This document shows positions 6,649 to 24,055 of a stretch of DNA of 64,000 nucleotides, in pieces. Location: IMG/VR virus record IMGVR_UViG_3300027374_000478, positions 1-64,000 of that record. One strand, 5' to 3'. This DNA comes from a virus. Lineage: Duplodnaviria > Caudoviricetes. Made by a program: the position numbers and the translations under genes. Each line of letters starts with the position of its first letter. Positions within the stretch are counted from its first letter, which is position 1. The notes beneath the pieces were generated by a model that had not been told where the DNA came from, made no database searches, and saw nothing but the letters and a program-made list of their open reading frames with translations.

Positions 6649-6942
6649 TTATTCTTTAAAACTTTTATGCCATAAACGTTTAATCCTAACGTTTTTCATG
6701 ATATTCTTGATTTCTGTCAAGTTAGACATTAATTGTCCATACTCATTTTTGATTTCTTCTAACTCATTTAACAACGCAAGCTGGTCTGTACATATATCAT
6801 TAATAAATTCTGATAATTCATCTTTTTTGCTTACATCTATTTCTAAATCAAATATTTTTTCTTTAAGTTTTTCTATTTCAAAACTCTGTCTTAATATAGT
6901 TTGGGTTTGAAAATCCTTTGATTTATGTTTGCTTTTAATCAT
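6649..6942 (-). CDS. Hypothetical coiled-coil protein
   Basis: 97-aa ORF with RBS between TMP and Dit. Confidence 0.5.
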   Translation of the reverse strand: MIKSKHKSKDFQTQTILRQSFEIEKLKEKIFDLEIDVSKKDELSEFINDICTDQLALLNELEEIKNEYGQLMSNLTEIKNIMKNVRIKRLWHKSFKE

Positions 6943-7064
6943 ATAAAAACTTCTCCATATAATTTTTGAGCATAAGACAGGAAATTAATTCACCGATCAA
7001 CAGATCTTATGCTGCTCTATATTAAATGAGGCTGTCTTTCAACAGCCCCATAAGTTAAAATTTT

Positions 7065-9232
7065 CTAAATCCTATATTTTCTCAGTGAACTTCCACCAGA
7101 CATTTCACCTACAGTCGCAGCCTGAATTGCACCCACAAAATTTTTATTATGCATCAAATCGTGTGGCACGCGCTCCATGAATTCATCGTAGTTCGTAACA
7201 TTGGGCAGATTCATGGTCAGGTGGATCTCATTATTAGCTACATTGTTATTCTTAATATTACTAATATTTTGCATTGCGGTTTTTAAGCTCTCTGCTCCGA
7301 GATTTCCTGCAATGTGAGTAGGTGATGTTGTTAATAATGTCCGAAGTGTTTCCATCTGCTTTTGACTAACGACCATATCTCCAGCACCTAACGGAGTAAG
7401 CACTGCGCCATCAGATTTTCTGATGATAGCCTCTGGCTTGTTGTTTTCCTGTGTCCATGCTAACTGGTCATGTGGGACATTCATCGTACCTTTAGCATAT
7501 CCTTTAAGCTGACTTAAGTTTACCCATCCTAAGTTGCCGCTTCCGTACTTTTTCCCAGTGCTGATATGGTAGGGCTTTTTAGCGCCTTTCTTAATCTTTG
7601 TAATATATACAGTGTCCCCTTTGTGTTTGTTTCCAGAAGAACCTGTACCATTACTGTTTTTAAAATAATTTCCACTTTTGTAAGTAACAATGTCGCCTAC
7701 TTCTGCTTTGCCGTTTGGTTTGTATTTTGGGTCATAAATTAAGTTGGTAGTAGCTTTCTTGGTAGGCGAGGTAGTGATTGGCTTTCCTACACCTGATAAC
7801 ATCGATGAAATATTGCTTGCCATATCATTCGATGCAGAACTTGAAGCATTATCAGAAAACACCTTCATGCTTGCAAGCGTATCCAACCGTGTGATCATGT
7901 TTTGGATATTTACATTTATTAATCCCAAGGTGTTATTTACGGTCGTAGCAGCAGACTCAATACCTGTCTGTAAATTATCGCCATAAGTAGTCAATACATT
8001 GGAAAGTTCCCCTGTGCTGGTATTCCAAATCTGCTCCATGGATGTTGATAAATCATAACCCACAGAATCAGCCTTTTCAGAAAGGGTAGTATTGATTGAT
8101 GATGCATTTTCGTTAATCTTTGCGATCATATCTGATATCAGCATTTCGATATCATCTAACCGCTTATTTAAGATTTCCTCATATTCATCATACAAGGTAT
8201 CAAGCATCTTTTTTTGGTCAGACACATATTTATCATATTCAGTTTCTTCCAGATTGTCTTTTGCTTCTTCCAGAGATACTTTATATTCCTGGATTTTGGC
8301 TTTAGCTTCTTCAGAATTGTCACCTTGGTAAGCGTCTAATATCTTCTGTAAATTAGCAATCTCTTTTGTCTGCTCTTTGACGCGCTTCTGATAGTCATAT
8401 AAATCCTTCTGTGCATCCAAGGCTTCTGTATAGGTGTCGATCAGCTCTCTCAAAGAATCCAGTTCTTTTTCAATTCCGTCTTCCACCATATCCTTGATCG
8501 CCTGTTTCTCGTCTTCGGCAGCGAGGATCATATCCTGTTGCAACTCAAGAAGTTCCTGTCTGCGTTCGACCAGTTCCTTGTCATATGGGTCTTCAGCAAT
8601 CTGTTTATCAAGATTATCTATTTCTTTATCATACCTGTCAGCTTGTGCCATGTACACATTGTAATTCATGCCGTGCAAGCCCATAGTAGTAAGCCCCTCG
8701 TTAGTGAGCTGTCCTTTGTCGTTATAAAGCTCCTCATTGCTCAAAAGCTCTGTAAGGAACTTGGATTCGTCTATGATATGGGAAATCTTGCCCTGTAGCA
8801 GATCAAATACTTCCCAACTGATATCACGTATGGAGTTGCCATATTGTATCATGGCTGTATTGGCTTCTTCAATTGAAAGGGTAACATCATCAATCTGGTT
8901 GCACATTTCGTACCAAGCTTCCGATTCTTTTTTAATAGCACCGCTGCTGACAGCTTCATTGAGTGATTTTGTCAAATCAGCTTTTTCTTTCTGAAGTTTA
9001 GAAATATTATTCCGCTCATTATCCATAAGAGCTTCATAGTATTTAATACTTACAATATATCCTTTTTCTTCAGCCTGTGTGATGGATTCATCAAGCATGT
9101 TCTTTTTATTCTCGATAATTGCCAAGATGCTATCATATTGTGATACAACATTATTGAAAGCTGTCTCGTATAATTCGCTAACCTTTTCATTCAGCTCCTC
9201 AACTGCATCACGGCAGTCTAACGCTTTTTCAT
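7065..9232 (-). CDS. Tape measure protein, exon 3
   Basis: Splice TGG T|AT GAA AAA GCG TTA GAC TGC gives QQWYEKALDC, in frame with ORF 7065..9125; coiled-coil plus C-terminal GYAKGT / AWTQE..PEAI motifs. Confidence 0.9.
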
Positions 9233-9399
9233 CATTGTCTTTACATAGTTCGCTACACTATGCGAGTTATCAAAACTCCCCATACTTTCATATGGCATGG
9301 GACTATATCTTCTATCTGTTAAATATTTTTGTGCATAATAAAAGAGCAGGAGAGTATTAATTTTCCTACTCTTTTTATTCTATCTAGTCAACTAAAGTC

Positions 9400-9921
9400 T
9401 CAATCATTCGCTTTATATGACAAAGCTAAATTTTCCATATCTTTAAAATCAATACATCTTTTTGCCAAATCACTATCCGGTTTATCATATTTATTATTAT
9501 AAACTTTTAAAGCAACTTTATCTAAATCCATTGTATTAATAACTTTTAATTCTGTTCGCATTAAAGATATGTATTTACTTTTTTCTTTTTCATTCTTAAA
9601 TGTTCTATGTTTGTCTAAATCCTTATATTGTAATTTATTATATATATTTTTAGGAATTGGGAACATATAGTTTAAATTGATTACAGCAATTAATCTATTA
9701 CTTTTTGGATCAAAAATTTTCTTAAAATCCTCATTGGCTTTCATTTTAAAATGCTTTTGTTTAGGATGAGATACTTGTGTAACATAATAGAAGTCATCAG
9801 TTTCAAACAATACTCCAAAAAATGGCTTATATTTATTATTTCCATAATCTGATTTTGGTATTCTGTTTTCTTTACTCCTAAGATAATTCAAATAATTTTC
9901 ATCAATGACAAGCCATTCCAT
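9400..9921 (-). CDS. toxN: Type III toxin-antitoxin endoribonuclease ToxN/AbiQ family
   Basis: YLNYLR...KPFFGVLF...YYVTQVSHPK...INLNYMFPIP motifs; preceded by repeat array and terminator. Confidence 0.88.
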   Translation of the reverse strand: MEWLVIDENYLNYLRSKENRIPKSDYGNNKYKPFFGVLFETDDFYYVTQVSHPKQKHFKMKANEDFKKIFDPKSNRLIAVINLNYMFPIPKNIYNKLQYKDLDKHRTFKNEKEKSKYISLMRTELKVINTMDLDKVALKVYNNKYDKPDSDLAKRCIDFKDMENLALSYKAND

Positions 9922-9947
9922 AATTTATCTCCTGTAAATTAACTTAT

Positions 9948-9974
9948 AAAAAGAGATAGTTTCCTATCTCTTTT
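9948..9974 (-). terminator. Intrinsic terminator between toxI and toxN
   Basis: AAAAGAGATAG-GAAA-CTATCTCTTTTT hairpin plus U tract. Confidence 0.85.
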
Positions 9975-9978
9975 CTAA

Positions 9979-10071
9979 ATTAATACGGTTTTATAGGCTC
10001 CGTAACCTCTATTAAGATAGTTTTAAGGTTCTATAACCTCTATTAATACGATTTTAAATGGATTCGTAACC
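9979..10071 (-). ncRNA. toxI: ToxI antitoxin RNA, ~3 diverged 30-32 nt pseudoknot repeats
   Basis: Units start at 9979, 10011, 10042; e.g. AGGU-UACGG-A-GCCU...CCGUA forms an H-type pseudoknot, with compensatory changes between units. Confidence 0.85.
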
Positions 10072-10106
10072 AGCTTAAATTGAAAACAATTTGTTTTCTT
10101 GAAGAT

Positions 10107-10135
10107 AGTATATGTTTAAAAAAACTGAATGTCAA
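10107..10135 (-). promoter_or_regulatory. Sigma-A promoter of toxIN
   Basis: TTGACA-17 nt-TATACT. Confidence 0.85.
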
Positions 10136-10589
10136 TACTTTTTATTGTTAAACTTTTATAAAATTTATTATTTTTTTATTAATAAAATGCTTTTTATCCT
10201 TTTATAATTATTTTGATCAATAGATTTTCTTTTTCAATCAGAACTTACATTTATTATATTATTTCTTTTTCATTTTAACAGATAGTCTATATTTTCGAAC
10301 TGCCAATCGCTTGCAGCCCTACATTAAGGCTTTCGCCGCCAATTTAGGCTAGTCTCTGAACGTCTTCCATCAGCATAACCCGTTAAGGAAGTTCGCTGCG
10401 TCTGGGTGACTTGCACACCCGGTTGCCCCTGGTCTGATTACTTTTTATGGTTTCTATCTGCTTGCACATGCAGACTGTAAGCTATAAGCCTATACCGCAT
10501 TCACGCTCACCGTTTCCAGTCACGTTGTAGCGAATCAGATATTATGGGGGTTCCCCGCAATAAAATAGATTAAGTGGCGTGAAAAATTC

Positions 10590-13500
10590 ACCACTGTTGA
10601 TATTCTTTGATTCTATTTGCTAGTTTCTCGTTTTTGATGGTGCTGATATCAATCTTACCTTCTCTAACTTTCTTGGTCAGAGATTTCCATGTTGACTTTT
10701 TATAACCATCATCTTTAGCTTTCTTGAGTGCTGTTTTATTTACTTTCGCAGCTTCCTGTTTATACCGTTTAAAACCCTTCTGTTGTATGGTGATTTCTTT
10801 GTTTACCTTGGAAAGCTCACTCTTGAGATTTTTGTTTCTGTCAGACCATGCTTTGTATGCACTGCTTGCTTTTAAGTCTAAGCTGTCTATTGCGCGTTCG
10901 ACACGATTGATTGCTACCTCAATCCAATCAAAAGCTTCTTTTGCTTTCTTAGCATCTTTTGTGGCTTGTTTAGATTTTTTGTTTGAAGTATTTTTACTTT
11001 TTGGAGTTGTTTTCTTTGTGGTCTTCTTCTTAGTAGTAGATGAACTCGCAAAAAGTTTGCGTCCACCATTCCTCGATGCATAAGCTGTACCCTCTAAATG
11101 GGCTGTGCCGCTTAATCTTGCTGCACCTCTGGATGGAGTAAAACCGTTCTTAAGTAATTCTTTGGTCTGCTTTGCGTTAAAAACTACAGATCCAGCAGGA
11201 ATATGAGAGAACTCAGCTCCGTTATCACCCACTGTCCACCAGCGATTGCCATACACTACCATTTCTTGACCCAATTCACCTGTTAAAGCATCTTCGCTTT
11301 TTTTGGTTTTCCAATTTGGATTTAACCACGTTTCGTCATCAAGTGTTCCATGTGCAAGAGCGCGTCTGGACAATTTGGGAATTGGATATAATCCGCCCGT
11401 CTTTTTTGATACTTCTTTTTGGCTAAGTGGGAGAGTAGTAGAGGTTTTATCTTTAACTGTTCCTTCTTTGTGAGCGGTTCCGTTTAATTGAGCTGTTGTC
11501 TTTACAAAACTCTTACTACCACCAAACGTTTTTAATGCATTTTTGACTTTATTAACTGCATTTGATACTGTATCTGAAACAGTCGCACTAATAGTTATCT
11601 TCTTGTCTTTTACTCCTGCTAATGCGTTCTTAGCTGACGTAGCTTTTGGAGTAACACCATCAGTAGCAGTCATATTTGTTTTGGTCTTCTTGGGAACCTT
11701 CTTTGTCTCTTTAACTACTTTTTTAGCAAGCCCAGACACATCATCAGAAGCTAAAAATTTTGTGATCTTTTCTTTTGGTATTCCTGTTATCTGTGATAAA
11801 ACAGTAGCTAATACACCAGAAGCACCGTCACTGGCATTGATTTCAGTAATTTTTTCTTCTGGTATTCCGCTGATTTCAGAAAGTACCTTGATTGTTGCGT
11901 CACTGGCTTTGTCTTCAGCTAATAGTTCAGTTATGATTTCTTTCGGGATTCCGGTAGAAATGGAAATCATACTTTCGAGTGCTGATGTAGCTTCATCATT
12001 AACCTTTGCGTTGATTTCTATATCTTTTGGGTCGATATCCAATATGTCTGCTATATCTTCTTTTGCCAATCCAGTAGATTCTTTAATAGCCTCAAATGCT
12101 TTGTCGGCTTCTTTTGACTTTAAGAAACTATCCCAGTCAACGGCCTTATTATCAGAGTAAGCATCCTGGAAAGCGTTTTGCAAGTCATAAATAGCAGATA
12201 TCTGGTCTTGAATTTTCGCACGGGCATTTTCATCTTTAACATCGCCAAATTTTGATTGTAAATCCTTAACCTTCTGAGACGCATTGGCATATCCTTTGCT
12301 TATAGACTCATCGTATCCCGTTTCCTTTTCACGTTTGTCCCTATATTCAGATTTCTTAGCGTTCAGAGCTGCTTTTTGTGTATTGTCTCCTTCGCTTGCC
12401 AATCTCTGCAACTGGTCTATCTCTGACTGAATTTGAGCCATACTGTATTCAAACTCGATATGAACAATCTGGTCTTCTGAAAGAGAAGATAAATCATCCT
12501 GGTACTTAGCGTACTCTTCATCCCAATTATTGATAAGTCCGTCAAGACGTTCCTTTCCAGCTCCCTCGCCCATGGAATCACGGAGAGATTTGATATTATT
12601 CAGGGTATTCTCATACCTTGTAATACTTTCTCCACTAAATGTCACATCATCCCACTCAAATCCATAGGATTCAAGATTGCGCAACAATGTTTCCGTAGCT
12701 TCAAGACTCATCTTCATTTTTTCTGCTGCTTCAGCAGTATTGTCGAACGTTCCCGTAAGCCCAGTTTCGTCTTCCTTTAACAGTCCTTTATCAATCAATG
12801 CATTCTGGAAGTTTGCAGCACTTCTTTTTGGATTTTCAGCATCAAAGAATTTCTTATATAGCTTTTCTGCGTCTTTGTATTTCTTTTCATAGACATCAGC
12901 AACATATTCAAGGTCGTCATTCTTTTTGAGTTCCTTTTTTACGCTGAATTTAGGGAGTACCCATTCAATAGACTTCTGTAGGTCGTCGGTTCCCCATTTA
13001 TCCTGTTTTGCAAGCTCTCTAGCCTGTGTAGCGTAATCGGCAAATTTTTTCCAGTCAGCATCTTTGTTTTCAGATTTAAAAGCTTCATCTACGTCTGACA
13101 GGGTAGTACCAAGTATACTAGCTTTTTCTTTTGCTTGTTCTGCTGAGTTTGCAACATTCTGGAAGTATTTGATGAAATTATCTTGTGACACTCCGATATC
13201 ATCAAGAGAAAGTCCCAGTTCTTTGAACTTACGGAGCGCATCTTCTGCATTTCCACTTTCGGCAACGATGTTGTTAAGATAATCTCCGATGGCATTTCCA
13301 GCAGTGGAAGAGAAGAAGGAGTCTAAGGATTTGAGTTCTTTTTCGGCGGGAAGCAACCCCATATTCCCGATTGCGTCATATGCAGATTTTACTTCGTTAA
13401 ATTCATCTTCAAATCCTTTTAACGCATCTAATCCTTCGCCATTTACAGAAACCGCTGACAATAATTTATCCAGGTCAACTTCTTTGCTATCTAAATCTTC

Positions 13501-14286
13501 TGTTAGTTTTTCGATTGCCGTATTATAGCTTTCAATATCTTTTTCTGACTGTTTCCATTCTTTTGATTTTGGATCAAGTTCAGACATAGATTTTTCTAAG
13601 TTGGAAATTTTATTTTCGTAATCTTCAATAGCAGCAATATTTTCTTTGACAGCAGTAGCAACATTAACATTACTGACCGTTCCCTGATAAGTCTTTTTGC
13701 CACCAGGAACTTGCTGTGCCACTTGTTGTGCTACAGATTGTTTCCCTCTATTTAATGCGTCTTTTGCATTGTAAGCAGCATCCTTTTGTTGAGATAAAGA
13801 TAATCTTTCTTTTATAGAAAGCTGAGATTCAAGTTTGCTGTTTGTTTCGGAAATTTTGTCAATTTCAACCTGATCTATTAATTGGATTTTTCCACTTTCG
13901 TTTAATTTTCCAATTTTCTCATCAATAGAGTCAATGCCACTTAAATCTACATTATATTTTTCTCCCAAAGATGAGAGGGTAGATTTGTATTCTTCTGCTT
14001 GAGATTTTAAGTTTTCTACCTCAGATTTTGTGCTATTTAGTCCATCTAAATGCTCTGATGTGTTTTTTATCGCAGAATCATAGGACAAGTTATACGCATC
14101 GGACAGTGCTTGTATTGCTTTGTACATTGCATAGGTTGTTCCAATGGTCGTTATTGCTTGACCTTTGAATGTGGACATAAAAGAACCTATACTTTTCCCA
14201 AGAGCATTAAAAGTTAATGATAGTGCGCTTTTGGTTCCTAATCCACTCTGAAAAATTGTAAATAGTTCAAATACTCTTTTAAACTG
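10590..14286 (-). CDS. Tape measure protein, exon 2
   Basis: ORF 10588..14178 stays open 36 codons upstream to CAG at 14286 (QFKRVFELF...); helical TMP repeats, ALTGELGQEMV and FDWIEV motifs. Confidence 0.88.
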
Positions 14287-14317
14287 CTATGAAGTAATGA
14301 TTATTTTTAAAAATTTG

Positions 14318-14346
14318 TTGGATAAATCTAAAAATAATGTTACAAT
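14318..14346 (+). promoter_or_regulatory. Putative sigma-A promoter of zinc-ribbon cargo gene
   Basis: TTGGAT-17-TACAAT with TG extension. Confidence 0.55.
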
Positions 14347-14363
14347 AAATCAGAGGTGATTTT

Positions 14364-14744
14364 ATGAATAGGTGTCCAAAATGTAATAAACAATTTTCTG
14401 TGGAAGTGAAGTTTTGCCCAATTTGCGGATACGAAAGTAATAATCAACAAAACGATACAGAATTTTATATTTGTCCTCAATGTCATATTGAGTATTCATA
14501 TAAAATAGACCACTGTACTAATTGTGGATATTGCACATCAAACTATAAAAATAAAATAAGAGATATTAATAATGAAAGCTTAAAGAAAGCAACAATTAAT
14601 ATTCCCATGTGTCCTACTTGTCAATCAACTAATATTCGAAAAATATCAGGAACTAAAAAGGTGACATCGATTATTGGGTTTGGAATATTGAGCGATAATA
14701 TTGGGAAAACTTTCGAGTGCTTAAATTGTAAATATAAGTGGTAA
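14364..14744 (+). CDS. Multi zinc-ribbon protein (intron cargo)
   Basis: Six CxxC pairs; C-terminal CPTCQSTNIRKIS...FECLNCKYKW. Confidence 0.75.
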   Translation: MNRCPKCNKQFSVEVKFCPICGYESNNQQNDTEFYICPQCHIEYSYKIDHCTNCGYCTSNYKNKIRDINNESLKKATINIPMCPTCQSTNIRKISGTKKVTSIIGFGILSDNIGKTFECLNCKYKW

Positions 14745-15094
14745 GATGAAATAAATCATGTTAAATAATGAAAACCAAACAAAGATCAAAAGGCTTTTGT
14801 TAAAAATAATTAAATTACCACAAATTATACATTCTTTCTTTACGAATGATGATTCTAAATCATACGTGATAATACGCAATTGTTATATTACTTTTTGTGA
14901 TTTTCATGTTAAAAGATAAAAGATGTTTTATTTATAAACTCGCATGATTTAGAATGTTTGGTAATAAATGATGTATTAGAATATAAAGTGAAATTATAGA
15001 AAACATATTCTGAATCCACAATCATCACTAATATTGTTGGATTATATGATAAAATGTGGTATTATAAGGAAAATATATATGTAGGTGAAGAGTA

Positions 15095-15649
15095 ATGGCA
15101 TTAGTAATTTGTCCAGAATGTAATAAACAAATGAGTCAATATGCAAAAAGCTGCCTTAACTGTGGATTTCCGATTCAAAAATTTATGAATGATAATAATA
15201 TGAATGATGAAACTAAAGCTTTTGTATGTCCAAAATGTGCAGATACTTATAAAATTAAAGGTGTTATATTTTTAAAGTGTGAATTTTGTAATACAACATT
15301 AGTCCAAACAGACATGAGTATCAAAGAGTTATTTCGATTTTCATGTAATAGTACAGATGAAGAATTTGAGTCTAAAGCAATTGAGTTAGCTAAAAAGTAC
15401 GGAGACAATCAATTTGATGAAAATGCTTATAATGAAACCAAACTTAAAAAGAAACAGCGTAATCTGAGCATGAGTTCATCGAATATAAATCAATCTCAAC
15501 AAGAAAATACACCCAAATGTCCTCTATGTGGATCGACTGCAATTACGGATGGTCAAAGAGGATATGCTTTGCTCACAGGATTCTTAGGAAGTAATAAAAC
15601 AGTAAATAGGTGTATTAACTGTGGATATAGTTGGAAACCTGGAAAATAA
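15095..15649 (+). CDS. Multi zinc-ribbon protein (intron cargo)
   Basis: MALVICPEC... and CPLCGS...CINCGYSW; promoter TTGGAT-17-TATTAT at 15037-15065. Confidence 0.75.
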   Translation: MALVICPECNKQMSQYAKSCLNCGFPIQKFMNDNNMNDETKAFVCPKCADTYKIKGVIFLKCEFCNTTLVQTDMSIKELFRFSCNSTDEEFESKAIELAKKYGDNQFDENAYNETKLKKKQRNLSMSSSNINQSQQENTPKCPLCGSTAITDGQRGYALLTGFLGSNKTVNRCINCGYSWKPGK

Positions 15650-15879
15650 AGTATCATGTCTTATCACAATAAAAAAATAATGATGTTTTACCATTAATGT
15701 GTATAATTTAACTTTGATGTTAATGGAAATATGTTGACCATTAACTATTTATGATTTGTTGGATATTCATTTATGCTTGATAATTTTCAAAATAAACATA
15801 TGTTTAATCTTAACAAATTGATGTGCATGTGATAGAATAATTTTATTATGTAACAATTACAAAAGATGGAGTATATAAT

Positions 15880-16338
15880 ATGTCAGATGCACAAAGCTAT
15901 ATTCAGTGGCTTAATAAAAAATTAAAATTAAATAATTATTCAGTTCAGAATAATGCCCAATTAATGAATTGGAAAATAAATAGAGGACAAATTTACACAT
16001 GCTTTCTTGGCGAAAATATTGGATTTGAAAAAAGTAGGATGGCAGCAAGACCATGTGTAATTATATCAACACAACGTATTAATCATGAAAGTGGTAATGT
16101 GATTGTAATTCCACTTTCAAAAAATATAAAATATGTACGTAGTACAAATAAATTAAAATATCCTTATCACTTTGTTTTAAAAAGATCCAAATATCCTAAA
16201 CTTCAATTTGATTCTGTCGTACAATGTGAAGATATACGTTGCGTGTCTAAAGCCAGGTTGTCGAAATATATTTGCAATGTCAAACCCGATGACATGAAAG
16301 ACATTAGGAAGAGATTGAAAAATGCTTTACAAATATGA
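15880..16338 (+). CDS. MazF/PemK-family endoribonuclease toxin, no adjacent protein antitoxin (intron cargo)
   Basis: RGQIY..LGENIGFE...RPCVIIS...VIVIPLS...DSVVQCEDIRCVSKARL. Confidence 0.88.
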   Translation: MSDAQSYIQWLNKKLKLNNYSVQNNAQLMNWKINRGQIYTCFLGENIGFEKSRMAARPCVIISTQRINHESGNVIVIPLSKNIKYVRSTNKLKYPYHFVLKRSKYPKLQFDSVVQCEDIRCVSKARLSKYICNVKPDDMKDIRKRLKNALQI

Positions 16339-16360
16339 CATATTATGGTATGATTAAAAC

Positions 16361-16546
16361 GTATAGAATATATTTGCTTACCTTATAGCCTACGAGATGC
16401 GTATTTATAATTTCCACTCTTATACATATAATTCTCGTGCGTTATTTGTTCGTAGGCCATTCGTTTAAAATTGTTTGAGAGTCCAAGTGATTCTCGCCGA
16501 AGTGATTATATGAAGAAAGGTAGGTTTAAGCCTATCTTTTTTCATA
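16361..16546 (+). ncRNA. Candidate sRNA downstream of mazF/pemK
   Basis: Own promoter TTTACA-17-TATGAT (16326-16354); stems GCCUACGA/UCGUAGGC and GAGAGUC/GAUUCUC; ends in hairpin 16508-16546. Confidence 0.55.
16508..16546. terminator. Probable bidirectional intrinsic terminator
   Basis: ATATGAAGAAAGGTAGGT-TTAA-GCCTATCTTTTTTCATAT between convergent genes. Confidence 0.7.
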
Positions 16547-16654
16547 TTCATACATAGCGGATGGACTGCGAAGCTTGTAATATAGAAGGTATATCATTAA
16601 ATAAGACTTACTGGTTATAGCATTTAGCTCTGCAATAACAGCAAAAATCAGAGC

Positions 16655-17947
16655 CTAGAATTGGCCCTGATCCTCAATTTCTTTACACAATTTTTCATAA
16701 TCATCATCGCCACTTAAAATATCTTCGGCAGTAAGCAATGTATCATACGCATGAGTAATTCCCTCTTCTTCATCATTTTCAAGATAATCCCTAGCTTCTT
16801 CCAATATTTCTGATTTATATTTTGAATATGCATTTGAATAATCAGTTTTAAATTCCTTTTTGTAAGAAGATTCATTTAAGTAATCGATGATATCTCTCCA
16901 TGCTTCCTTCTCTTCGAAATCTGAAATCTTATCAGATACAATGGTTTTATCTATTTTTTTAGATTGTTCGTCTATTTTATCATCATTACCGATTTTCTTT
17001 TTTAGCTCTGATAAAACTTTTTTAGCGGAATCATATTCCCTATCTTCCAAATAATCATTACTATCTGAAATTGCGTTGTTTATCATTTCGCTTTTTGCAT
17101 TTTTTAAAGTTGAAATATTGTCATTTTTCAAAGTTTCTTTTAACGAATTTATGTATTTATACAGTCCGTACCAATCTTCTTTATCCTTGTAAACAGATAT
17201 TTTATAAGAAACTTCTTTTTCATCTATATTTCTTGATTGTTCTGATATTTTTTTATCTTTCCCAACCAACTTTTTTGCTGAACTTAAAATTTTTCTTGCG
17301 CCATCGTACTCATGGCTCTCAATTTTTTGATTTGAATCTGATACCATATCAGACAAATAAGTATCTTTCGCCTGTGAATATATTTCCGATACTGTTTTAT
17401 CATTACCAAATACATCTTCATTAGAGTTAATATAGGCAATAACATCTTTTGGATCAGTTGTTTCAGTTAAAGAATATAATTCTTCACGTGCAGACACATA
17501 TGCTTGTTTATCCAAAAGCGTTTCGTTTTCAGGTAATTCTTTAAGTCCTTCCCTAATTAAACTCCTGGCTTTATTATAATTATTATTTTCAACTTCACTA
17601 TCTGTTTCAGTTACGATGTAAGACAAATATTGTTTTTTTGCAGATTCCAATAATTGCTCTTTATCGTCAACAACTCTGGAATCATCACTAATGCTCTCAT
17701 AATAACCTATAGCACTTAAATATTTACCTTCATTAATTGCATCATCCCCATTAGATTTTGCTTCTAAATCAGCATTATCTCGTTTTTCTTCTTCTGTAAG
17801 ATGTCTTTGAGATTCATATTTTTTTGGAAAAAAATCTAAATGTTCAATATTTACCGCAGTAAAACTGCCAAAGGCTATTAAACTGCCTATTAAAGTGATA
17901 GCAATTAAACCAGATAAAGGAAAGTTATTTTTGTTGTTATCGTTCAT
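16655..17947 (-). CDS. Membrane-anchored helical-repeat protein (intron cargo)
   Basis: N-terminal TM segment, repeated YDxAxKxL helical units, GGAGG RBS. Confidence 0.65.
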   Translation of the reverse strand: MNDNNKNNFPLSGLIAITLIGSLIAFGSFTAVNIEHLDFFPKKYESQRHLTEEEKRDNADLEAKSNGDDAINEGKYLSAIGYYESISDDSRVVDDKEQLLESAKKQYLSYIVTETDSEVENNNYNKARSLIREGLKELPENETLLDKQAYVSAREELYSLTETTDPKDVIAYINSNEDVFGNDKTVSEIYSQAKDTYLSDMVSDSNQKIESHEYDGARKILSSAKKLVGKDKKISEQSRNIDEKEVSYKISVYKDKEDWYGLYKYINSLKETLKNDNISTLKNAKSEMINNAISDSNDYLEDREYDSAKKVLSELKKKIGNDDKIDEQSKKIDKTIVSDKISDFEEKEAWRDIIDYLNESSYKKEFKTDYSNAYSKYKSEILEEARDYLENDEEEGITHAYDTLLTAEDILSGDDDYEKLCKEIEDQGQF

Positions 17948-18482
17948 AATTGCACCTCCTAGAAATATTTTTATATATTATAAACGTTTCTAGCCTAAAT
18001 GCAAGTATTAATCGAAAATTATTTGGACAAAAATAAAAAATATTTCTTGATATCATAACAGGTATATTTTACATCATATCTGGTCAGTTTATTGTATTTT
18101 TTATCTCTATTAAAAAATTATAATTTTATATCAAAACAATTCATTTCAAACAATAATCTTCTTTTTTCTTTTAAATCTACGTCTGCGTAATTCTAAGCTA
18201 TACCCGCCCCTCATTGAATACTCACCAATACTATCTTGTAGATTCTTGTCATCCGGCACACTCAAATCCCTTGCAGCAAACGTATCTATAGTGCGTTTCT
18301 TGATAATTCTATGCCCATTAGATTTTTTACTCCTTTAATACAAATTATTTCATCCCTACCCATTTCTTGACTCTATCCACCAATTTCTTATTCACAGACT
18401 GGTAGGTGATTTCGATTCTATCAAAATTTCAAACAAATGTTTAGACTATTATTATATTCCAAGAAGTGATAAAATTAATTTC

Positions 18483-18570
18483 GTAAGAAGTCGCATTGTG
18501 CAACTGCGACTGTTGCACTCTTACATAGTAACTATTAATTGTAGCCGTACAAAATGTAAGAAGGTACGGT
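18483..18570 (+). ncRNA. Structured leader with two pseudoknots / alternative pairings
   Basis: AGUCGCA/UGCGACU with loop GUGCAAC/GUUGCAC; UCUUACAU/AUGUAAGA with CCGUAC/GUACGG. Confidence 0.55.
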
Positions 18571-18661
18571 GAATCACCTCTTGGAAAATCAAAAACTTCA
18601 TAGTGGATTTCCCACAGTATTTTCCAAATTATTTTATTCTCTTACAGAAGGGAGGAAGACT

Positions 18662-18811
18662 GTGGATAAAGTCTTTGACATCTTTATGGCTCTTATTGGA
18701 CAAGTTCCTTGGTTTGTGTCAGGATATATCGTGTACAAGGTATATTCTAATAAACCAAAACACACATCCATAAGTATATCAGATAAGCTAACCATTGTAT
18801 CTGAAAGATAA
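18662..18811 (+). CDS. Small hydrophobic peptide (49 aa), type I toxin-like candidate
   Basis: GGGAGG RBS then GTG at 18662; hydrophobic stretch followed by basic residues. Confidence 0.5.
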   Translation: MDKVFDIFMALIGQVPWFVSGYIVYKVYSNKPKHTSISISDKLTIVSER

Positions 18812-18935
18812 TCAACACCATCTTTTGCCATTTGCTTGATTCATCAGGAGAGTAGGAGAGTAATCACCCAAACAAATACCCATGTCACACAACGGCATGG
18901 GTATTATCATCCATATTCAATTTTATACTATTCAT

Positions 18936-19109
18936 CTACGCATCCAGAACCATACACTGATACTTACCTTTATCAGAATAAATCTCTTTCAATTCCCTCA
19001 GAGTTTCCGCATTATTCCCATATACCTCATCATGGATTTGAGCATATAATCCTGATTTGTCGATGATTAAAAATCTCCATGTATCTTTCTTAAATGTTAC
19101 CTGTCCCAT
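18936..19109 (-). CDS. Small hypothetical protein (intron cargo)
   Basis: GGAGGG RBS before ATG at 19109 (MGQVTFKK...). Confidence 0.45.
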   Translation of the reverse strand: MGQVTFKKDTWRFLIIDKSGLYAQIHDEVYGNNAETLRELKEIYSDKGKYQCMVLDA

Positions 19110-19211
19110 AATGTACACCCTCCTGGATATCTTTAATGTTCTTTGATAAGGTAATGATATCATAATGGGTGTGTAAAAGTTTGGACAGTTGATTTTTAAT
19201 TACATATTATA

Positions 19212-19937
19212 TTAATAGCACACTTTACACGGACGCGATTTTGGGCAACTTGATTTTGAGCCTTTATAAATTGTACGTGAACGGCTCAATGTAGGACAAT
19301 TCTTTGTGCTATGATATACTTCACCACTAGGAACCCAATAAACAGTTTTCCCTACTTTATTACTACTTGATTTCTTTTTAGCCGAAACTTTAACAGTACA
19401 AGTTGCTTTTTTACCAGATTTCAGCAGGACTGTTATCTTGGCAGTACCTTTTTTCTTAGCCTTAATTTTGCCATTAGCTGTGACGGTTGCCACTTTTTTA
19501 TTATTGGACTTATATTTCTTAACGGAATCCCCTTTTGCGTATGATGTCTTTAATTTATAGGTTTTAGATACAGCTAATTTAATTGTTTTTTTAGATAATT
19601 TTATGTATGGTTTTAATTTAGGAACAACACTTGTTTGTGTAGCTCCACACATCCAGCATTCCCGCTCTTTTAATCCTGTAGCATTAATTGTTGCAGATTT
19701 TGTCTGTTCCCATAAATCCCAATTATGTTTGCCAGTGGCAGAAATCTTCTGTTCCTCTTCTTTATTACATAAGTAACAATATCTATATTCGCTGCCATCA
19801 GTTCCGCAATCAGATTCTCTATATACAATCCAATCACTCCAATTATGATTACAAACATCTTCTGCAAATACTTGCAGAGGGAAAAGTGTTGCCATAATCA
19901 TCACAATTAACAGGTTACATAATTTTTTCTTCATCAC
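19212..19937 (-). CDS. Secreted protein with Cys/His repeats, bacterial Ig-like (Big_2) domain and C-terminal Zn-binding motif (intron cargo)
   Basis: Signal peptide; YKSNNKKVATV..NGKIKAKKKGTAKITV; YHSTKNC...PCKVC. Confidence 0.75.
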   Translation of the reverse strand: MMKKKLCNLLIVMIMATLFPLQVFAEDVCNHNWSDWIVYRESDCGTDGSEYRYCYLCNKEEEQKISATGKHNWDLWEQTKSATINATGLKERECWMCGATQTSVVPKLKPYIKLSKKTIKLAVSKTYKLKTSYAKGDSVKKYKSNNKKVATVTANGKIKAKKKGTAKITVLLKSGKKATCTVKVSAKKKSSSNKVGKTVYWVPSGEVYHSTKNCPTLSRSRTIYKGSKSSCPKSRPCKVCY

Positions 19938-20099
19938 AACTCCTCCTTAGTAAACATGTTAAAAATATTATACCATAGTGTTGTGATTCGTTCTATAGAA
20001 ATTGATTATTTAGACATAATAAAAGGGCAGGAGAGTGGCGAATTTCTCTGATTGCTCTTTCTTCTTTTGTTTTCTCTGAACCATATATTTGATTTTTCT

Positions 20100-20273
20100 T
20101 TATAAAACTAGAAAACTGCCATACTTAATAGCATGACAGTTTTCTAGAACTCATGTGTAGATTCATGGTTACACCAATCATCTACTAAATCTCCTTTATC
20201 CTTTCGTATGTTTCAAGGTTACACCTTTACCAAACGAATATCATCACTTCAAGGTTACACCTTTATTGATGAT
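20100..20273 (-). ncRNA. DUF3800-associated sRNA with three repeated stem-loops
   Basis: Promoter TTGAAT-17-TATAAT (20280-20308); repeats at 20162, 20212, 20248; terminator 20108-20147. Confidence 0.65.
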
Positions 20274-20311
20274 AAAGAGATTATAACATATTCTTGCCAA
20301 TAATTCAACAT

Positions 20312-21040
20312 TTATAAAATATCTTTAAAACCGATTATTTTTTCAAGATCGTCTCTTGCATGATATAATTTTTGATAAAATATATCTCCAAGTCCAAAAA
20401 AGCCTTTATTAAACTTGATTTTTCGAATCAATAAAGACGGTGACATGTCTGAAATTTGAAGTCCAATACAGTTATCTTCCTTATATATGAATCCTAACGA
20501 AGATAAATGTTGTTGAATGATTGTTGAAGAATTATATAAAGATCCTCTTGTTATATAGTCATAGTAGGAATTTTGCAAATATGAATTTTCTTTTAAGGTT
20601 CTTGATTCTATACAAATTTGCCCAATTGCGTTTTTATTACGTAAAAAATGAACAATATTATCCAACAGAGAAATAAAAGCAATATCATAACTATTGTATG
20701 AAGTTTTTAAATACAATGAAGTCATGATTGATTGCTCAAAATATACACCTATGGATGTAAAATTAAGAGTTTTTAATATGTTTTCATATTCTATCCAAAA
20801 GCTTACACGTAATTCACTATCTTCTTGAAATATTTTAAATTTATTTTTACTTTTTTTCATATCAGTAAAATGAAAAATAATATCTGTAGACTGAAAATAT
20901 TTTCTTTTTAAAGTAACAATATCAGGTATTGCTTTTGTTACATATTCATCTTTTGAAATTATTATTCCTGACATGCAAAAATATGGATTTTGATTTTTTA
21001 CAGGTTTTGTTTCGTCAAGAAAAATTAAATATTCATCCAA
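20312..21040 (-). CDS. DUF3800-family protein (intron cargo)
   Basis: N-terminal IFLDET, FHFTDM, C-terminal GLQISD motif. Confidence 0.8.
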   Translation of the reverse strand: MDEYLIFLDETKPVKNQNPYFCMSGIIISKDEYVTKAIPDIVTLKRKYFQSTDIIFHFTDMKKSKNKFKIFQEDSELRVSFWIEYENILKTLNFTSIGVYFEQSIMTSLYLKTSYNSYDIAFISLLDNIVHFLRNKNAIGQICIESRTLKENSYLQNSYYDYITRGSLYNSSTIIQQHLSSLGFIYKEDNCIGLQISDMSPSLLIRKIKFNKGFFGLGDIFYQKLYHARDDLEKIIGFKDIL

Positions 21041-21704
21041 AATAGCTTCCTCCTTAGTACAAATACTATTGAGTATTATACAATAGAGTTCACTATATTT
21101 CTATAAAATCAAAATAAATAAATGCAATCGGATTAATTAAATACCCCTGTCAAGACCAAACAGCATTAAGGACACACTTCTTAAAAAGCGATCCGAAGAT
21201 TATATTGGTTAACGACTCTTAACATAGCCGTCCTATCATCGCACGAGATAGAAGACCGTTCCAACATTAAGGATTGCGAATCCTAGTGGATTACCACCAT
21301 TTTGTTATTTTACCTTGGACTATACATTATAAGCAAATACAATAAGGTCTGTATTTACTCAGAGGATCGGTAGTCTCTGAACATCCCCCTATATCATAAT
21401 GATATATTGGTGTGCTGCTGATTAGTTAATCGGTTGCAATAACAACATACAACCTTTGCCCTTATTCTAGGTACTTAGGAGCATCGTCCCGATGCCTTTT
21501 ATTTCACCTTATACCATCTCATTAATTTTTTCTGCTTTCGCTGCATATCACGCTTACCATTTTCAGATTACGTTGTAGCTTAATGAGCATTAGGCTTCCC
21601 AGTCAAGTTACTCCTCCAGTTTTAGAACATGACACCACACAATTGTACATGATACCATATTTGTCATTTCCTTTTGTGTAGATTAGACCAGTTTAATAAA
21701 ACAA

Positions 21705-23609
21705 ATCTAGGTTCCTGAATAATTTAATACCGCCAATAGTGGCGAATAGTGTAGGTAATGCGCCTCCGACATCTATAATTTTTGTTAATACATTTAAAAA
21801 TTCTGATCCTGTATCAATCGCACCTTTTAAGAAGTCAGAATTAAATGCAACATTTGAAAATTCTTGGAACTGACTGCGGAACTGCTGGATTTTTGCTTCC
21901 ATACTTTGCATCCATCGGTCTTGTTCCTTTTGAGCTGAACCTTCAGCATTTAAAGTCGCTTCATAAGCTTTTTGTATTTGTCCGGATTTAAAAGCCTGTA
22001 AAATAGCGGCACCTTGATTACCTCTGTTTTTACCGAACATGGTTTCAAGCAAATCAGCTTGTTCTGTTTGTTCCAAATTGTCATATACTTTTGAAACGTC
22101 TTCTAATATATCATAGTAATCTCTAAACTTAGTTGAATCAGCAGAATCCATTATGTTGACTTGACCCTTTGTGAGATTTAAAATGTGCGTTTGAATTTTG
22201 CTGACAGATTCTAAGCCGTCCGATTCTTCGCCTAGAGCTTCCAGATCGCCCTTCATACCTTGAATGCGCATCTGTCCAATTTTTAAAGCATTACCAAGTT
22301 CTCCAGCAGATTGTGTGATTTCTGATCCGCCCGTTAATAAAGCTAACGCCTTGTTTAAATCAGTTCCACCTAAAGATAGCATGGATGCAGCATGTGACAT
22401 TCCTTCGCCCAAATCTTTAGCTGATGTCGCAAATTCATTTCCAAGTTTATTATATTTATCTACAATAGACAAAGCATTATCATAACTAATGTCATAAGCT
22501 TTCATGACAGTTACTAAGTCACTTACAGCGGTTTTGTCATCGACTTCGCCAACATTAGAATAAATAGAGCTTATTTTGGAAAGTCTTGCACTTTGCTCCA
22601 TAGTGTAGCCAAGTTTTGCCCATTCGCTAGTTTGCGTTATATATGATGACATGTCTCGTCCGATTGACTTAGAGATATTTCCGGCATTATTCAGAAAATC
22701 ATTATATTTAGATGTGGTTTCATCTGTAACCTTATACAAATTGGTCATAGCAGTATCAACACTTAACACTTCATTTGCCATTTGTTTCAATACATAGGGT
22801 ATTCTCTGGATAGCCCCATAAGTAAGTGCAAATTGCCCAATCTGTTTAAATCCACGATTCATTTCTGCAAAAAAACTTTTCCCATTCAATCCCTGGGAAG
22901 AAATAGTAGATTTTAAGTTTTTGAATTCATTGTCAAGTTTAGCTTTATCGGCAACAGTTGTAGCTTGTCTATATCGATTTTCTAAATCTTTTAATTCTAT
23001 TCCGTATTTTTTAACAGCTTTAGAATTATCTTCATAATATTTCTTTACTGCATTTGCCGAACGTTCTGCCACTCCGATATCAAGTGTTTTTGACCCTGTG
23101 TTACGGATTTGTGTCATTATATTATCAAATCTTTCTGCGGCCAGCGTCATATCATTAAAAGAATTTACAAACTCTTTATTATCAAGTTTAAATGAATTGT
23201 TAGAATCAAAATGTGCTTTTATCTTACTGAGTGTAGAATTGTATGCTTCAGCTTCTTTTCTGGCGGCTTTTACTAAATCAGAATCCTGTCCACTATATCC
23301 AGAAAGCTTATTTTTCATGACAGATGATTTTGCGTCATAAGCCCCATTTAAAATTTTATGTTGAGCATTAGAAATTATTTTTGAATACATTTCGGCTTGT
23401 TTTGTTGAAGACCTTATAGAATTATTGGCGGCGTTTTGTATTTGTCTTCCTATATTATCAACATTAAGATTCCTAAAACCTTTGTCATCAAATTTTATCT
23501 TAATTGTTTTATTATTAAGACTATTGATTTTATTTTCTATTTGTGTTAATTTTTCAAAACCTAGTAGTTTGGCGTGTATGTTAACATTATAATCTGCCAA
23601 AACATTCAC
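21705..23609 (-). CDS. Tape measure protein, exon 1 (TP901-type core)
   Basis: VDTAMTNLYKVTD...EWAKLGY...LGNEFAT...GNALK; ends FRNLD at the 5' splice site; start may be TTG 23600. Confidence 0.92.
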
Positions 23610-23665
23610 CTCGCTTTTTCAATAAAAAAAAGAGAGGGTATTCCCTCTCTATATAATTTCAATAT

Positions 23666-24055
23666 TTAACCAAATTGTGAACGAAAATTCTCTTTTGCCA
23701 TATTTACAATTTTCTTTAGAGCTTTTTCATCGTATTCTGGATTTCCTAAAACTCCGTATGTTCCAGTTGCAGTGGCTTCAAATACTTCTTGTCCACTAAA
23801 TGTTCCATCTCCTGGAGGATACGAGATTTGTGTACCATCATAGCCGGCAGTAATATGAGCAGAATCGCCTCCGATGCTCAACTCAATTTTGGAAGCTCCC
23901 TTAAGGGTTCCCGTTCGTTGTCTTTTGGGATTTCCTATAGAATAATATTGGTCATATGATTCTGCTAAAATTTCATTAGAATCTCGACCTGTGTTATTCA
24001 TAGCGTTTGCTAATTTTCTTTGACAATCTTTATGTATCTGGCTTAATTTCGTAAT
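23666..24055 (-). CDS. Putative tail completion/neck protein
   Basis: YY...RTGTL motif; frame extends to ATT at 24055 behind GGAGG. Confidence 0.5.
   Translation of the reverse strand: MTKLSQIHKDCQRKLANAMNNTGRDSNEILAESYDQYYSIGNPKRQRTGTLKGASKIELSIGGDSAHITAGYDGTQISYPPGDGTFSGQEVFEATATGTYGVLGNPEYDEKALKKIVNMAKENFRSQFG

Follow-up and report, generated by a model that had tools for sequence, protein, structure and literature searches.

The tape measure gene and its inserted genes

The tape measure protein (TMP) gene lies on the minus strand of the window, by which we mean the whole 64,000-nt stretch of DNA that was analysed, and is found there in three pieces. Exon 1 (21705-23609) encodes 635 aa with a PhageMin_Tail domain (Pfam PF10145, E 1.1e-16) and ends in ...KLFRNLD; exon 2 (10591-14286) is open for 1232 codons from the splice site; and exon 3 (7065-9232) carries the frame QQW-Y-EKALDC onward across a second intron. 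Direct reading places the first interruption at 21704 to 14287, a minus-strand intron of 7,418 bases. The exon 1 frame, ...AGG AAC CTA GAT, stops at 21705 and is followed by TTG TTT TAT TAA, and at the other end a UAG stop (14289-14287) supplies the last intron base, G14287, directly before CAGUUUAA (14286-14279), the start of the 1232-codon open frame QFKRVFE.... The two exons join in frame as FRNLD|QFKRV, and on this join and on the end of exon 1 at 21705 our reading agrees with an earlier note on this DNA.

Exon 1 is colinear with the initial portion of over 100 full-length TMPs and the C-terminal part of exon 2 aligns downstream of the exon 1 match in the same proteins, so that the two exons match successive parts of single TMPs of 2000-3150 aa. 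The junction is uninterrupted in 93 of 111 long homologues, which read KNF[EDQ]|[QND]LKN where the window has RNLD|QFKR. The earlier note had allowed that intron-less homologues might reveal a TMP segment missing between NLD and QFK; they run straight through this point, and no such segment is found. It could be argued that exons 1, 2, and 3 are made as separate polypeptides that assemble without RNA joining, with the ribozyme described below being a relic or serving the inserted genes, and gene callers do give the pieces as distinct proteins in hundreds of relatives. We consider this unlikely, as the uninterrupted homologues are single proteins and, in the window and one related locus (L138), the open frame of exon 2 begins precisely at the splice site. 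The 5′ end of exon 2 has no Shine-Dalgarno sequence with a start codon in any of the six loci that carry this intron, though their frames are open for 1232 to 2152 codons, and in the window the first ATG is 36 codons in and has no Shine-Dalgarno sequence. Furthermore, lineages whose exons share only 41-62% identity have retained the ribozyme structure, the P10 match and a junction that stays in frame.

The cargo of the intron is encoded on both strands and consists of six ORFs that either have a Pfam or PHROG match or exceed 120 aa, together with small ORFs. On the TMP strand these are a 242-aa DUF3800 protein (20312-21040; PF12686, E 9.4e-12), a 241-aa Big_2 Ig-domain protein (19212-19937; PF02368, E 3.5e-9) that is 59% identical to a cargo protein of the related intron L140, and a 430-aa protein of unknown family (16655-17947) with no PHROG or PADLOC match and only sub-threshold Pfam matches. 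A small conserved protein of 57 aa, starting MGQVTF... (18936-19163), is shared with the introns of L137 and G002, and its gene has its own promoter-like site and terminator; contigs from the four sequencing runs examined all cover it. Antisense to TMP are a 152-aa MazF/PemK-type toxin (15880-16338; PF02452, E 1.6e-20; PHROG 1936), a 184-aa triple zinc-ribbon protein (15095-15649; PHROG 2546) with 33-45% BLASTP identity to the ORF adjoining the 3′ splice site in G002, L137 and L139, and a 126-aa zinc-ribbon paralogue (14364-14744; zinc-ribbon Pfam matches) that itself adjoins the 3′ splice site and is 54% identical to the terminal ORF of L140. That three cargo genes run opposite to TMP counts against an intron, as do two terminator-like hairpins in the TMP sense, a strong one at 20108-20147 (an 18-pair stem followed by a T run) and a second at 16676-16642. 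Scans with Pfam, PHROGs and PADLOC found no homing endonuclease (LAGLIDADG, GIY-YIG, HNH, His-Cys or VSR-like) in the cargo ORFs, no nuclease signature was seen in the conserved zinc-ribbon protein, and Pfam gave no transposase among the window cargo. The ORF count and family scans therefore uphold the earlier description of about eight genes on both strands with no endonuclease.

Ribozyme core and long-range pairing

Directly after exon 1 is a structured RNA of ~460 nt (21250-21704) with the hallmarks of a group I intron, including P1 with its U.G pair, a P3/P7 pseudoknot, P8, P9 and the R and S elements; P2 and the other helices from P3 to P8 also belong to this core. In P1, UAGAU pairs with GUCUA, placing U21705 opposite G21688, and every P1 pair is standard. 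Direct reading found R as GUUCAGAGACUAC and S as AUGUAUAGUCC, P3 can be built from GGAGGA and UCCUCU, and a short hairpin makes up P8. When eight homologues were aligned, 97.2% of cells in the core were paired, the P1 pairs were invariant, and the splice-site U.G was present in 8/8 sequences. The alignment holds 40 compensated pairs compared to 13.1 ± 2.7 in shuffles, none of 500 shuffles reaching 40, and slid-alignment controls gave 0-5. Compensated pairs fall in P7 (2), P8 (5) and P9 (4), and the helices between P3 and P7 covary as a group. Two results count against the intron here: P3 is 92% paired in this alignment with no compensatory change and pairs poorly in L138, and the Rfam Intron_gpI model gave no match on 611 nt, either at the gathering threshold or at E 10. 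The same model likewise missed the annotated intron region of a staphylococcal Kayvirus (L149) used as a control, so it has low power for this class of intron and its negative is uninformative. The Infernal check proposed in the earlier note thus came back empty; of the complete group I core that the note had described, P1, P3, P8, R and S can be read and the core covaries, while confirmation by the Rfam model did not follow.

Resemblance to known phage introns is also found at the level of primary sequence. Positions 21600-21496 are ~80% identical over 100 nt to 135 phage records from Staphylococcus, Enterococcus and Lactococcus, the Kayvirus intron being one of them, and in vB_Sau_CG the core-like sequence sits between the tail tube gene and an annotated "putative intron-encoded nuclease". 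The ribozyme segment continues past the core into a conserved 3′ extension (21148-21249) that ends in TTGACA, and the resemblance of relatives ceases just beyond it. Intron positions 1-557 of the window are 91.8% identical to positions 1-560 of L137 and diverge afterwards, with L136 following the same pattern, and the X15 and X16 contigs part from the window sequence at 21199. The core occurs once in the whole 159-kb record.

The distant 3′ splice site is marked by pairing with the guide region of the ribozyme (21683-21696). Here UUAAACUG (21696-21689) is followed by the internal guide GGUCUAA, whose G21688 forms the U.G pair, and the former is complementary to CAGUUUAA, giving an 8-bp P10; the terminal G and this target (14279-14287) include the first codons of exon 2. 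The earlier note had said that the complement of the eight bases beside the guide opens exon 2 after G14287, and this is what we read. The motif GCAGTTTAA alone is not rare, with three copies in the window against 0.88 expected, so the weight rests on its position and on the five other loci described below, and not on its occurrence. One copy is inside the intron (17886-17878), where G|CAGTTTAA at 17886 could act as a competing splice site, and this counts against the intron. P10 shows no covariation, which is also counted against; neither guide nor target varies, and the conserved Q-F-K/N is encoded by the target as well.

Two nested long-range helices had been proposed in the earlier note to bring the intron ends together, and one of them was kept. 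UGUUGGA (21260-21266) pairs with UCCAACA (14316-14322), and the latter precedes the 3′ splice site by 26-36 nt in 6/6 introns. Relatives of type B carry UAUUGGC and GCCAAUA, two double compensatory changes (G-C to A-U and A-U to C-G). This helix is 7 bp long with support from two lineages, and the promoter-like nature of its 3′ strand is counted against it: the plus strand of 14316-14322 belongs to the promoter-like TTGTTGGAT of the zinc-ribbon gene, a motif that reappears at 15042 and 15764 and has 2-3 copies per intron. The other helix, AUGGUGGUAAU with AUUACUUCAU, was rejected, its 5′ strand being part of a covarying local P9 hairpin and its 3′ partner unconserved.

The same intron in related phages

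The intron also occupies this TMP site in five other uncultured SPbeta-like phages. Its length is 7418 nt in the window, 10197 in G002, 9470 in L137, 3330 in L138, 5562 in L139 and 7795 in L140. In all six, the 5′ splice site reads AAYCTAGAT|TTGTTTTAT, the guide is TTAAACTG+GGTC, and G|CAGTTTAA falls in frame at the first codon of exon 2. The cargo is largely unrelated between introns, and the antisense zinc-ribbon is the only ORF family present in all the related introns; an IS605 pair is found only within the cargo of a different intron lineage (L131). The core of the window intron matches that of L137 at 92.7% identity, against 49-72% for the flanking exon DNA, and presence or absence at one conserved site with an intron more alike than its flanks is a trait of mobile introns. 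Alignment of homologous loci, suggested in the earlier note, thus bore out cargo turnover and shared splice sites for introns of 3.3 to 10.2 kb, and the covariation between guide and exon 2 that it had also hoped for was not seen, P10 being invariant.

These comparisons bear on whether a normal small intron was simply hit by insertions, leaving a defective prophage with a broken TMP. The record is a provirus from metagenomes, and the toxins and repeated promoter motifs in the cargo are suggestive of piecemeal insertion. Against this, all six lineages retain an intact core, ωG and P10, as well as exons that stay open over great lengths, despite their different cargo, which independent decay would not preserve, and the same read-through tail is found in 38 of the 120 similar-length relatives listed (clusters at 90% identity). 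We therefore regard decay as quite improbable.

A site-specific recombination event on induction, of the kind that removes some elements during development, could instead restore the TMP gene before transcription, in which case the junction AACCTAGAT-CAGTTTAA is predicted in DNA libraries. Programmed DNA rearrangements are a known feature of SPbeta-type phages (PMC5499854), which lends this idea some precedent. However, recombinase and integrase families are absent from the cargo of the window, L137, L138, L139 and L140, the 8-nt match between the island ends is inverted rather than direct, and a covarying ribozyme sits exactly at the boundary, all of which make excision at the DNA level very hard to credit.

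Proposed splicing and cargo exchange, and known relatives

The TMP gene contains a second group I intron (9233-10590), with R, S and a 12-bp stem read directly, that carries ToxIN/AbiQ in its P8 loop; toxN (9400-9921) matches ToxN in Pfam at E 2e-42 and AbiQ in PADLOC. This intron is missing exactly at the predicted junction in a close relative, whose contigs join 9232 to 10591. Upstream of the late operon and in the same orientation as TMP is a gene for a YonO-like phage RNA polymerase (53334-55175), which matches yonO of SPBc2 by tblastn (E 1e-4, 62% of the query) as well as an Enterocloster phage "RNA polymerase".

A processive polymerase matters to the question of whether the ends of the first intron are on one RNA or two. 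If exon 1 and the ribozyme were on an RNA ending at an internal terminator, and a second RNA began close to where the cargo ends on its 3′ side, pairing in the closing helix and P10 could hold the two together for trans-splicing. The two sense-strand hairpins (20147-20108 and 16676-16642) could provide the terminator, the layout fits a split intron in that the ribozyme is wholly 5′ and the 3′ part is just ~40-70 nt, and contigs from an RNA library that cover the core and not the exons point weakly the same way. We doubt this arrangement nonetheless, given that intermolecular pairing would amount to only 7 + 8 bp, that the region directly before 14330 has no convincing sense promoter (sites there score 9/12 at best), and that the gene for a processive phage polymerase is present. 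The known cases of trans-spliced group I introns are organellar, which also counts against it.

Our preferred reading, to which we give a probability of roughly two in three, is that 21704 to 14287 is one group I intron interrupting TMP in an SPbeta-like prophage carried by a mouse-gut Firmicute. No bacterial group I intron of such size and with many genes is known to splice, and this has been counted against it. In the layout seen in the sequence, the 5′ end of the intron is formed by the ribozyme from P1 to P9 (~460 nt) and the conserved 100-nt extension, and the cargo occupies the loop of the peripheral UGUUGGA/UCCAACA helix after P9, with the terminal G and exon 2 following ~36 nt beyond the 3′ strand of this helix. 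In the lysogen, the MazF-type toxin, DUF3800, Ig-domain, zinc-ribbon, 57-aa and 430-aa genes would be read from their own promoters. Upon induction, we infer that transcription of the late operon runs through the entire intron, probably with the processive YonO-like polymerase, and that the closing helix and the 8-bp P10 would then draw the far-off 3′ splice site up to the core. By two transesterifications, ...FRNLD would be joined to QFKRV..., with the RNA junction AACCTAGAT-CAGTTTAAAAGA, and a single TMP mRNA would result after removal of the second intron, which bears ToxIN.

Parts of this arrangement have parallels in known systems. The phage T4 sunY (nrdD) intron, of ~1 kb and mentioned in PMC3984707, likewise has its core before the ORF and the ORF in a peripheral loop near the 3′ splice site, but it holds a single sense-strand homing endonuclease gene as opposed to the multi-gene cargo found here. 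Prophage moron and defence hot spots carry variable defence and toxin-antitoxin genes between conserved flanks and express them from their own promoters in the lysogen, as is likely here; the difference is that the present hot spot is inside an essential coding sequence, where tolerance is predicted to depend on RNA splicing. The closest known relatives of the window intron are the small TMP introns and the IStrons. Small introns in the same gene include TMP-IVS1/2/3 of Bacillus cereus group prophages (PMC2504315) and the ICP1 intron, whose splicing was shown by RNA-seq and RT-PCR (PMC10448857). They share with the window intron an in-frame insertion, an early stop, intron-plus and intron-minus relatives, and the adaptation of different introns to one site, but they carry at most a homing endonuclease gene and none has been reported with a multi-gene island. 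In IStrons such as CdISt1 and BcISt1, an insertion sequence is embedded in the 3′ end of a group I intron (PMC3984707, PMC4227781). The window has the same layout, the core (21704-21250) being followed by cargo (21148-14330) and then by the 3′ splice site (14287), and IStrons resemble it further in their 5′ ribozyme with foreign coding DNA before a distant 3′ splice site, their occurrence in Firmicutes, and splicing that makes the insertion harmless. Their cargo, however, is an IS200/605-type transposon in elements of ~2 kb at many genomic sites (PMC3984707, PMC4227781), whereas introns of the window type hold accessory genes that are unrelated, lie on both strands and add up to 3-10 kb, without a transposase in the window intron, and all are at a single conserved TMP site.

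The earlier note had observed a giant cargo-bearing intron in the TMP gene, and we confirm that observation. Its view of the intron as a site for cargo is supported by sequence comparison, and cargo turnover suggests that the TMP site may serve as the "neutral landing pad" that it proposed. With an insert that is removed at the RNA level, cargo content would be free to change, and the conserved ribozyme end and zinc-ribbon end could act as homology arms for cargo swaps between phages. Given the same site and the same intron with quite different gene loads, the intron appears to be a swappable storage bay, one that would allow 7.4 kb of DNA with toxin genes, defence-like genes and unknown genes to be kept within the essential gene for tail length.

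A tape-measure gene in three pieces

The provirus record that opens with the 64-kb window is 159 kb long in IMG/VR, and the stretch 13800-22200 is present in mouse-gut metagenomes; isolate runs labelled "organism A" also contain the window's sequence. The tape-measure gene (TMP) lies on the minus strand in three pieces: piece 1 (23609-21705; 635 aa, PhageMin_Tail), piece 2, an open frame from 14286 to 10588, and piece 3, which ends at 7065. Judged by comparison with homologues, the three pieces are one gene. In more than 100 full-length TMPs of 2000-3150 aa the match to piece 1 comes first and the match to piece 2 lies further along the same protein, and 93 of the 111 long homologues whose alignment gets to the end of piece 1 are uninterrupted there. 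The closest of these read KNFE-QLKN, KNFD-NLKN and KNFQ-DLKN where the window has RNLD-QFKR (hyphens mark the junction); the earlier note had named intron-less homologues as a check for a lost TMP segment, and none is absent at the proposed junction. Many other homologues end 3-30 residues past this point with several different tails, and the tail NLDLF[YL], which is the read-through of the window's intron 1, occurs in 38 of 120 listed relatives of similar length. Uninterrupted homologues and varied short tails at the same point therefore indicate that introns recur at this site and belong to several lineages. Many TMP relatives (P0134, P0149, P0151, P0185 and P0216 among them) instead run to KEQDRW and then a short unrelated tail, which suggests from sequence another recurrent intron site within the PhageMin_Tail domain. 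Gene callers give hundreds of "truncated" TMPs in gut Firmicute phages. Exon 2 had no tblastn match in cultured phages, and its peptide patterns found nothing in IMG/VR.

Read directly from the DNA, exon 1 ends in AAC CTA GAT and runs on into TTG TTT TAT TAA. The guide, UUAAACUG, is found at 21696-21689 (minus strand) immediately 5′ of GGUCUAA, and in P1 UAGAU is paired with GUCUA, placing a U.G at the 5′ splice site. UCCUCU and a short hairpin lie between GUUCAGAGACUAC and AUGUAUAGUCC. At the other end, 7.4 kb downstream, is a UAG stop whose last base is G14287, followed by CAGUUUAA, the first codons of piece 2. All of the base-level statements in the earlier note were borne out by this reading. 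GCAGTTTAA is not rare by itself, with three copies in the window against 0.88 expected, one of them within the intron at 17886. This copy forms a second G followed by CAGTTTAA at 17878-17886 (minus strand), inside intron 1 at the start of a 430-aa cargo gene. Splicing to this point would yield exon 1 with a 14-residue tail; the copy may be a chance occurrence or a cryptic alternative 3′ splice site.

Five other loci, from uncultured SPbeta-like phages whose TMP carries the same intron at the same place, each have the two ends of the intron on a single contig. The G followed by CAGTTTAA opens the exon-2 frame, in frame with exon 1, in all five, which backs the placing of the 3′ splice site at G14287. 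Intron length is 7,418 nt in the window, 10,197 in G002 (L003 plus L005), 9,470 in L137, 7,795 in L140, 5,562 in L139 and 3,330 in L138, and the junction across loci is NLD-QF(K/N). The G and CAGTTTAA together are single copy across 22-27 kb in G002 and L138, and in the window and L138 the frame opening coincides with the splice site itself. Exon-2 frames stay open for 1232 to 2152 codons, and none has a Shine-Dalgarno sequence and start codon near its beginning. Such frames are hard to reconcile with decay of the gene or with independent translation of piece 2, both of which would fit them poorly. We favour cis-splicing of a 7.4-kb cargo-carrying intron, at a probability of roughly two in three; a trans-spliced version of intron 1 is improbable, and split polypeptides, decay and DNA excision share what remains.

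The group I core and a proposed helix closing the cargo loop

Three Rfam searches gave no group I match, even at E 10 with a 611-nt slice. The same model also misses an annotated Kayvirus intron region, and the Rfam negative is therefore uninformative and was not taken as absence. Positions 21600-21496 are ~80% identical to 135 phage records, and in Kayvirus vB_Sau_CG the counterpart segment has the tail-tube gene on one side and a "putative intron-encoded nuclease" on the other. For the core we aligned eight homologous 5′ segments (window, L002, L135, L136, L137, L138, L139 and L140), that of L136 being carried by Lachnospiraceae bacterium MD308 (VIQU02000094.1). The alignment folds into P1, P2, an inner domain, P7, P8 and P9, and with P3 as a pseudoknot 97.2% of cells are paired. 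Pairs changed on both sides number 40, compared to 13.1 ± 2.7 in shuffles (40 was reached in 0 of 500), and drop to 0-5 with the partners offset by 1-3 columns; P7 has two compensated pairs, P8 five and P9 four. P1 is invariant with its U.G in 8/8, and P3 is paired in 92% of cells with no compensated pairs. This alignment is positive evidence for the group I core described in the earlier note.

An R...S pattern recovered L135 and L136, two P2 patterns recovered only two already known IMG/VR contigs, a 14-mer guide pattern had 117 chance matches in IMG/VR with the core in none, and a 24-mer found nothing in metagenome and genome contigs.

Two long-range helices had been proposed to bring the intron ends together. 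One, UGUUGGA (21266-21260) with UCCAACA (14322-14316), is found in the window, L137, L140 and L138, where it reaches 10 bp. A second intron type (G002, L139 and the 5′ part of L135) has UAUUGGC and GCCAAUA with both strands altered, giving two double compensatory changes, albeit in a short helix and between two lineages only. This agrees with the proposed pairing, and its 3′ strand lies 26-36 nt ahead of the splice site in 6/6 introns. As a further caveat, the same strand, present in 2-3 copies per intron, doubles as a -35-like promoter part of an antisense zinc-ribbon gene. The other helix, AUGGUGGUAAU with AUUACUUCAU, was rejected as a long-range pairing, as its 5′ strand belongs to the covarying P9 hairpin and its 3′ partner is not conserved.

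Variable cargo and a second intron

Sense cargo in the window encodes a DUF3800 protein, a Big_2 Ig-domain protein, a conserved protein of 57 aa that has a promoter-like site and a terminator to itself, and the 430-aa protein of no family; on the antisense strand are a MazF/PemK toxin and two zinc-ribbon proteins. A search of this cargo for a homing endonuclease, transposase or recombinase found none, in keeping with the earlier description of genes on both strands without an endonuclease. Cargo turnover had been named there as a check, and the gene sets do differ: L137 carries AIPR, DUF4062, DUF2513 and Big_2, L139 HTH plus HipA-like and DUF3037, L140 an M78 peptidase, HTH and two Big_2 proteins, and L138 HTH and a Spo0A_C-like protein. 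DNA likeness between introns is limited to the first ~470-560 nt, the zinc-ribbon end and a few shared cassettes, and contigs of a ~97% relative part from the window at 21199, just within the cargo. The L137 core is 92.7% identical to that of the window, against 49-72% for the exon flanks, which suggests that the intron has moved horizontally or been exchanged.

By BLASTP, the window, G002, L137, L139 and L140 have a single family in common, the antisense zinc-ribbon protein next to the 3′ splice site; in L138, too, a zinc-ribbon ORF sits at this position. In all six the gene is antisense and the last before that site, and the -35 part of its promoter-like sequence is complementary to the helix strand closing the cargo loop. 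The window has two zinc-ribbon genes (14364-14744 and 15095-15649, plus strand); the conserved family is a triple zinc-ribbon protein, PHROG 2546. An Atlas look-up returned only "viral zinc-ribbon proteins of unknown function", and the protein could be an intron helper or a fixed cargo gene. The 57-aa protein (MGQVTFKKDTWRFLIIDKSGLYAQ...; 18936-19163, minus strand), whose gene also has a Shine-Dalgarno sequence, is common to three introns with otherwise different cargo; contigs of its region were present in 4/4 runs examined, one a true metatranscriptome.

Loads are still more varied in other lineages at this TMP site, which include GmrSD-like genes. L131 (13589-23673) and L004 (~11480-18500) have a different intron lineage with 7-10 kb of cargo, including a group II intron reverse transcriptase, an IS605 TnpA/TnpB pair and Bro-N/ANT, and by sequence these are mobile elements nested within a group I intron. 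Their candidate junction NIG-IFKT fits homology; P1 and P10 (the guide-exon 2 pairing) were sought by eye and gave no firm placing of the guide, and we did not use this lineage as support. Further SPbeta-like phages (L125-L130) have >10 kb after TMP exon 1, as far as the contigs reach, with GmrSD_N (DUF262) proteins, SLFN/AlbA_2, a SeqA-like protein, an M78 peptidase, an HTH/S24 repressor-like gene and an NS_2 endonuclease.

The same TMP gene has a second group I intron (10590-9233, minus strand) holding a complete ToxIN/AbiQ system in a 12-bp P8 stem, with promoter, repeats and toxN (9400-9921). Contigs of a close relative from three runs join 9232 to 10591 with one base between, which is the predicted junction (QQW-H/Y-EKALD). 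This intron and its exact absence in the relative add credibility to the case for intron 1.

Inferred expression and splicing, and a possible platform for gene capture

All of these phages share an SPbeta-like character, with YomU/V/W/X families upstream. Pfam found no YonO among the large ORFs; tblastn did find a homologue at 53334-55175 (minus strand), which lies upstream of the late genes and points the same way as they do. This homologue of the YonO-like single-chain RNA polymerases is 24% identical to SPBc2 yonO across 62% of the query. Adjoining it, also upstream of the late genes, is a 623-aa ORF (55175-57046, minus strand) that matches SPbeta-group hypothetical proteins. Elsewhere in the prophage are an Rfam int-alpA RNA match (41 bits) and two tRNA genes (34797-34861, 46203-46286 and 50353-50425, all minus strand). 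Two terminator-like hairpins lie on the sense strand within intron 1. From the SPbeta-like context and the co-oriented YonO homologue we infer a division of labour between host and phage polymerases, followed by removal of the insert by the ribozyme. In the lysogen, host polymerase would express the cargo; after induction, phage polymerase would read through the two hairpins, and the ribozyme would then excise the entire insert, leaving the predicted RNA junction AACCTAGAT-CAGTTTAAAAGA.

Contigs from four RNA or possibly-RNA runs were compared with 6500-24000; none joins 21705 to 14286, though they are from relatives and mostly probable DNA and cannot show absence, and they weigh neither way on the splicing of intron 1. 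Coverage in the true metatranscriptome (X19) was limited to 21150-21672 and 18484-19189, at 90-95% likeness. The interpretation in the earlier note, of a ribozyme that lets the TMP gene carry an accessory island, is supported overall, less one of its helices and with splicing unproven.

Group I introns in TMP genes are known from B. cereus prophages (PMC2504315), and that of ICP1 was shown to splice (PMC10448857); these carry at most a homing endonuclease, whereas the window intron has a multi-gene cargo. IStrons share its layout of a 5′ ribozyme and foreign DNA ahead of the 3′ splice site (PMC3984707, PMC4227781), but their load is a transposon and the elements are ~2 kb in size, while the window intron is 7.4 kb with no transposase among its cargo. 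In the papers searched we found no description of a group I intron, from bacteria or phages, that carries several genes unrelated to mobility. At slightly less than even odds, these introns may serve as a platform that captures genes by integron-like logic, with a ribozyme as its base. The conserved module at the 5′ end, carrying the ribozyme, would finish in an outward promoter-like site, and the conserved 3′ module would consist of the antisense zinc-ribbon gene, whose promoter would double as the RNA helix strand docking the 3′ splice site. The two modules would bracket freely exchangeable defence and toxin cassettes, on in the lysogen and spliced out of the late TMP message over up to 10 kb, as enabled by a processive YonO-type phage polymerase that ignores internal terminators.

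If the introns splice, they would extend the size known for bacterial group I introns about five-fold and replace one mobility gene with several unrelated cargo genes. They would also explain the hundreds of "truncated" TMP calls, and tools for phage annotation and completeness that mark such genomes as broken would have to be corrected. The TMP site would be a new type of hot spot collecting defence, abortive-infection and toxin-antitoxin genes (MazF, ToxIN/AbiQ, AIPR, HipA-like and GmrSD-like, relatives included), with a simple search rule for finding more. For RNA biology, it would offer a natural system for how a ribozyme locates a splice site 3-10 kb off. Furthermore, if the gene-capture reading is true, an essential structural gene would be the safest place in the phage to keep its arsenal, and bacterial group I ribozymes would be able to locate a 3′ splice site many kilobases away.
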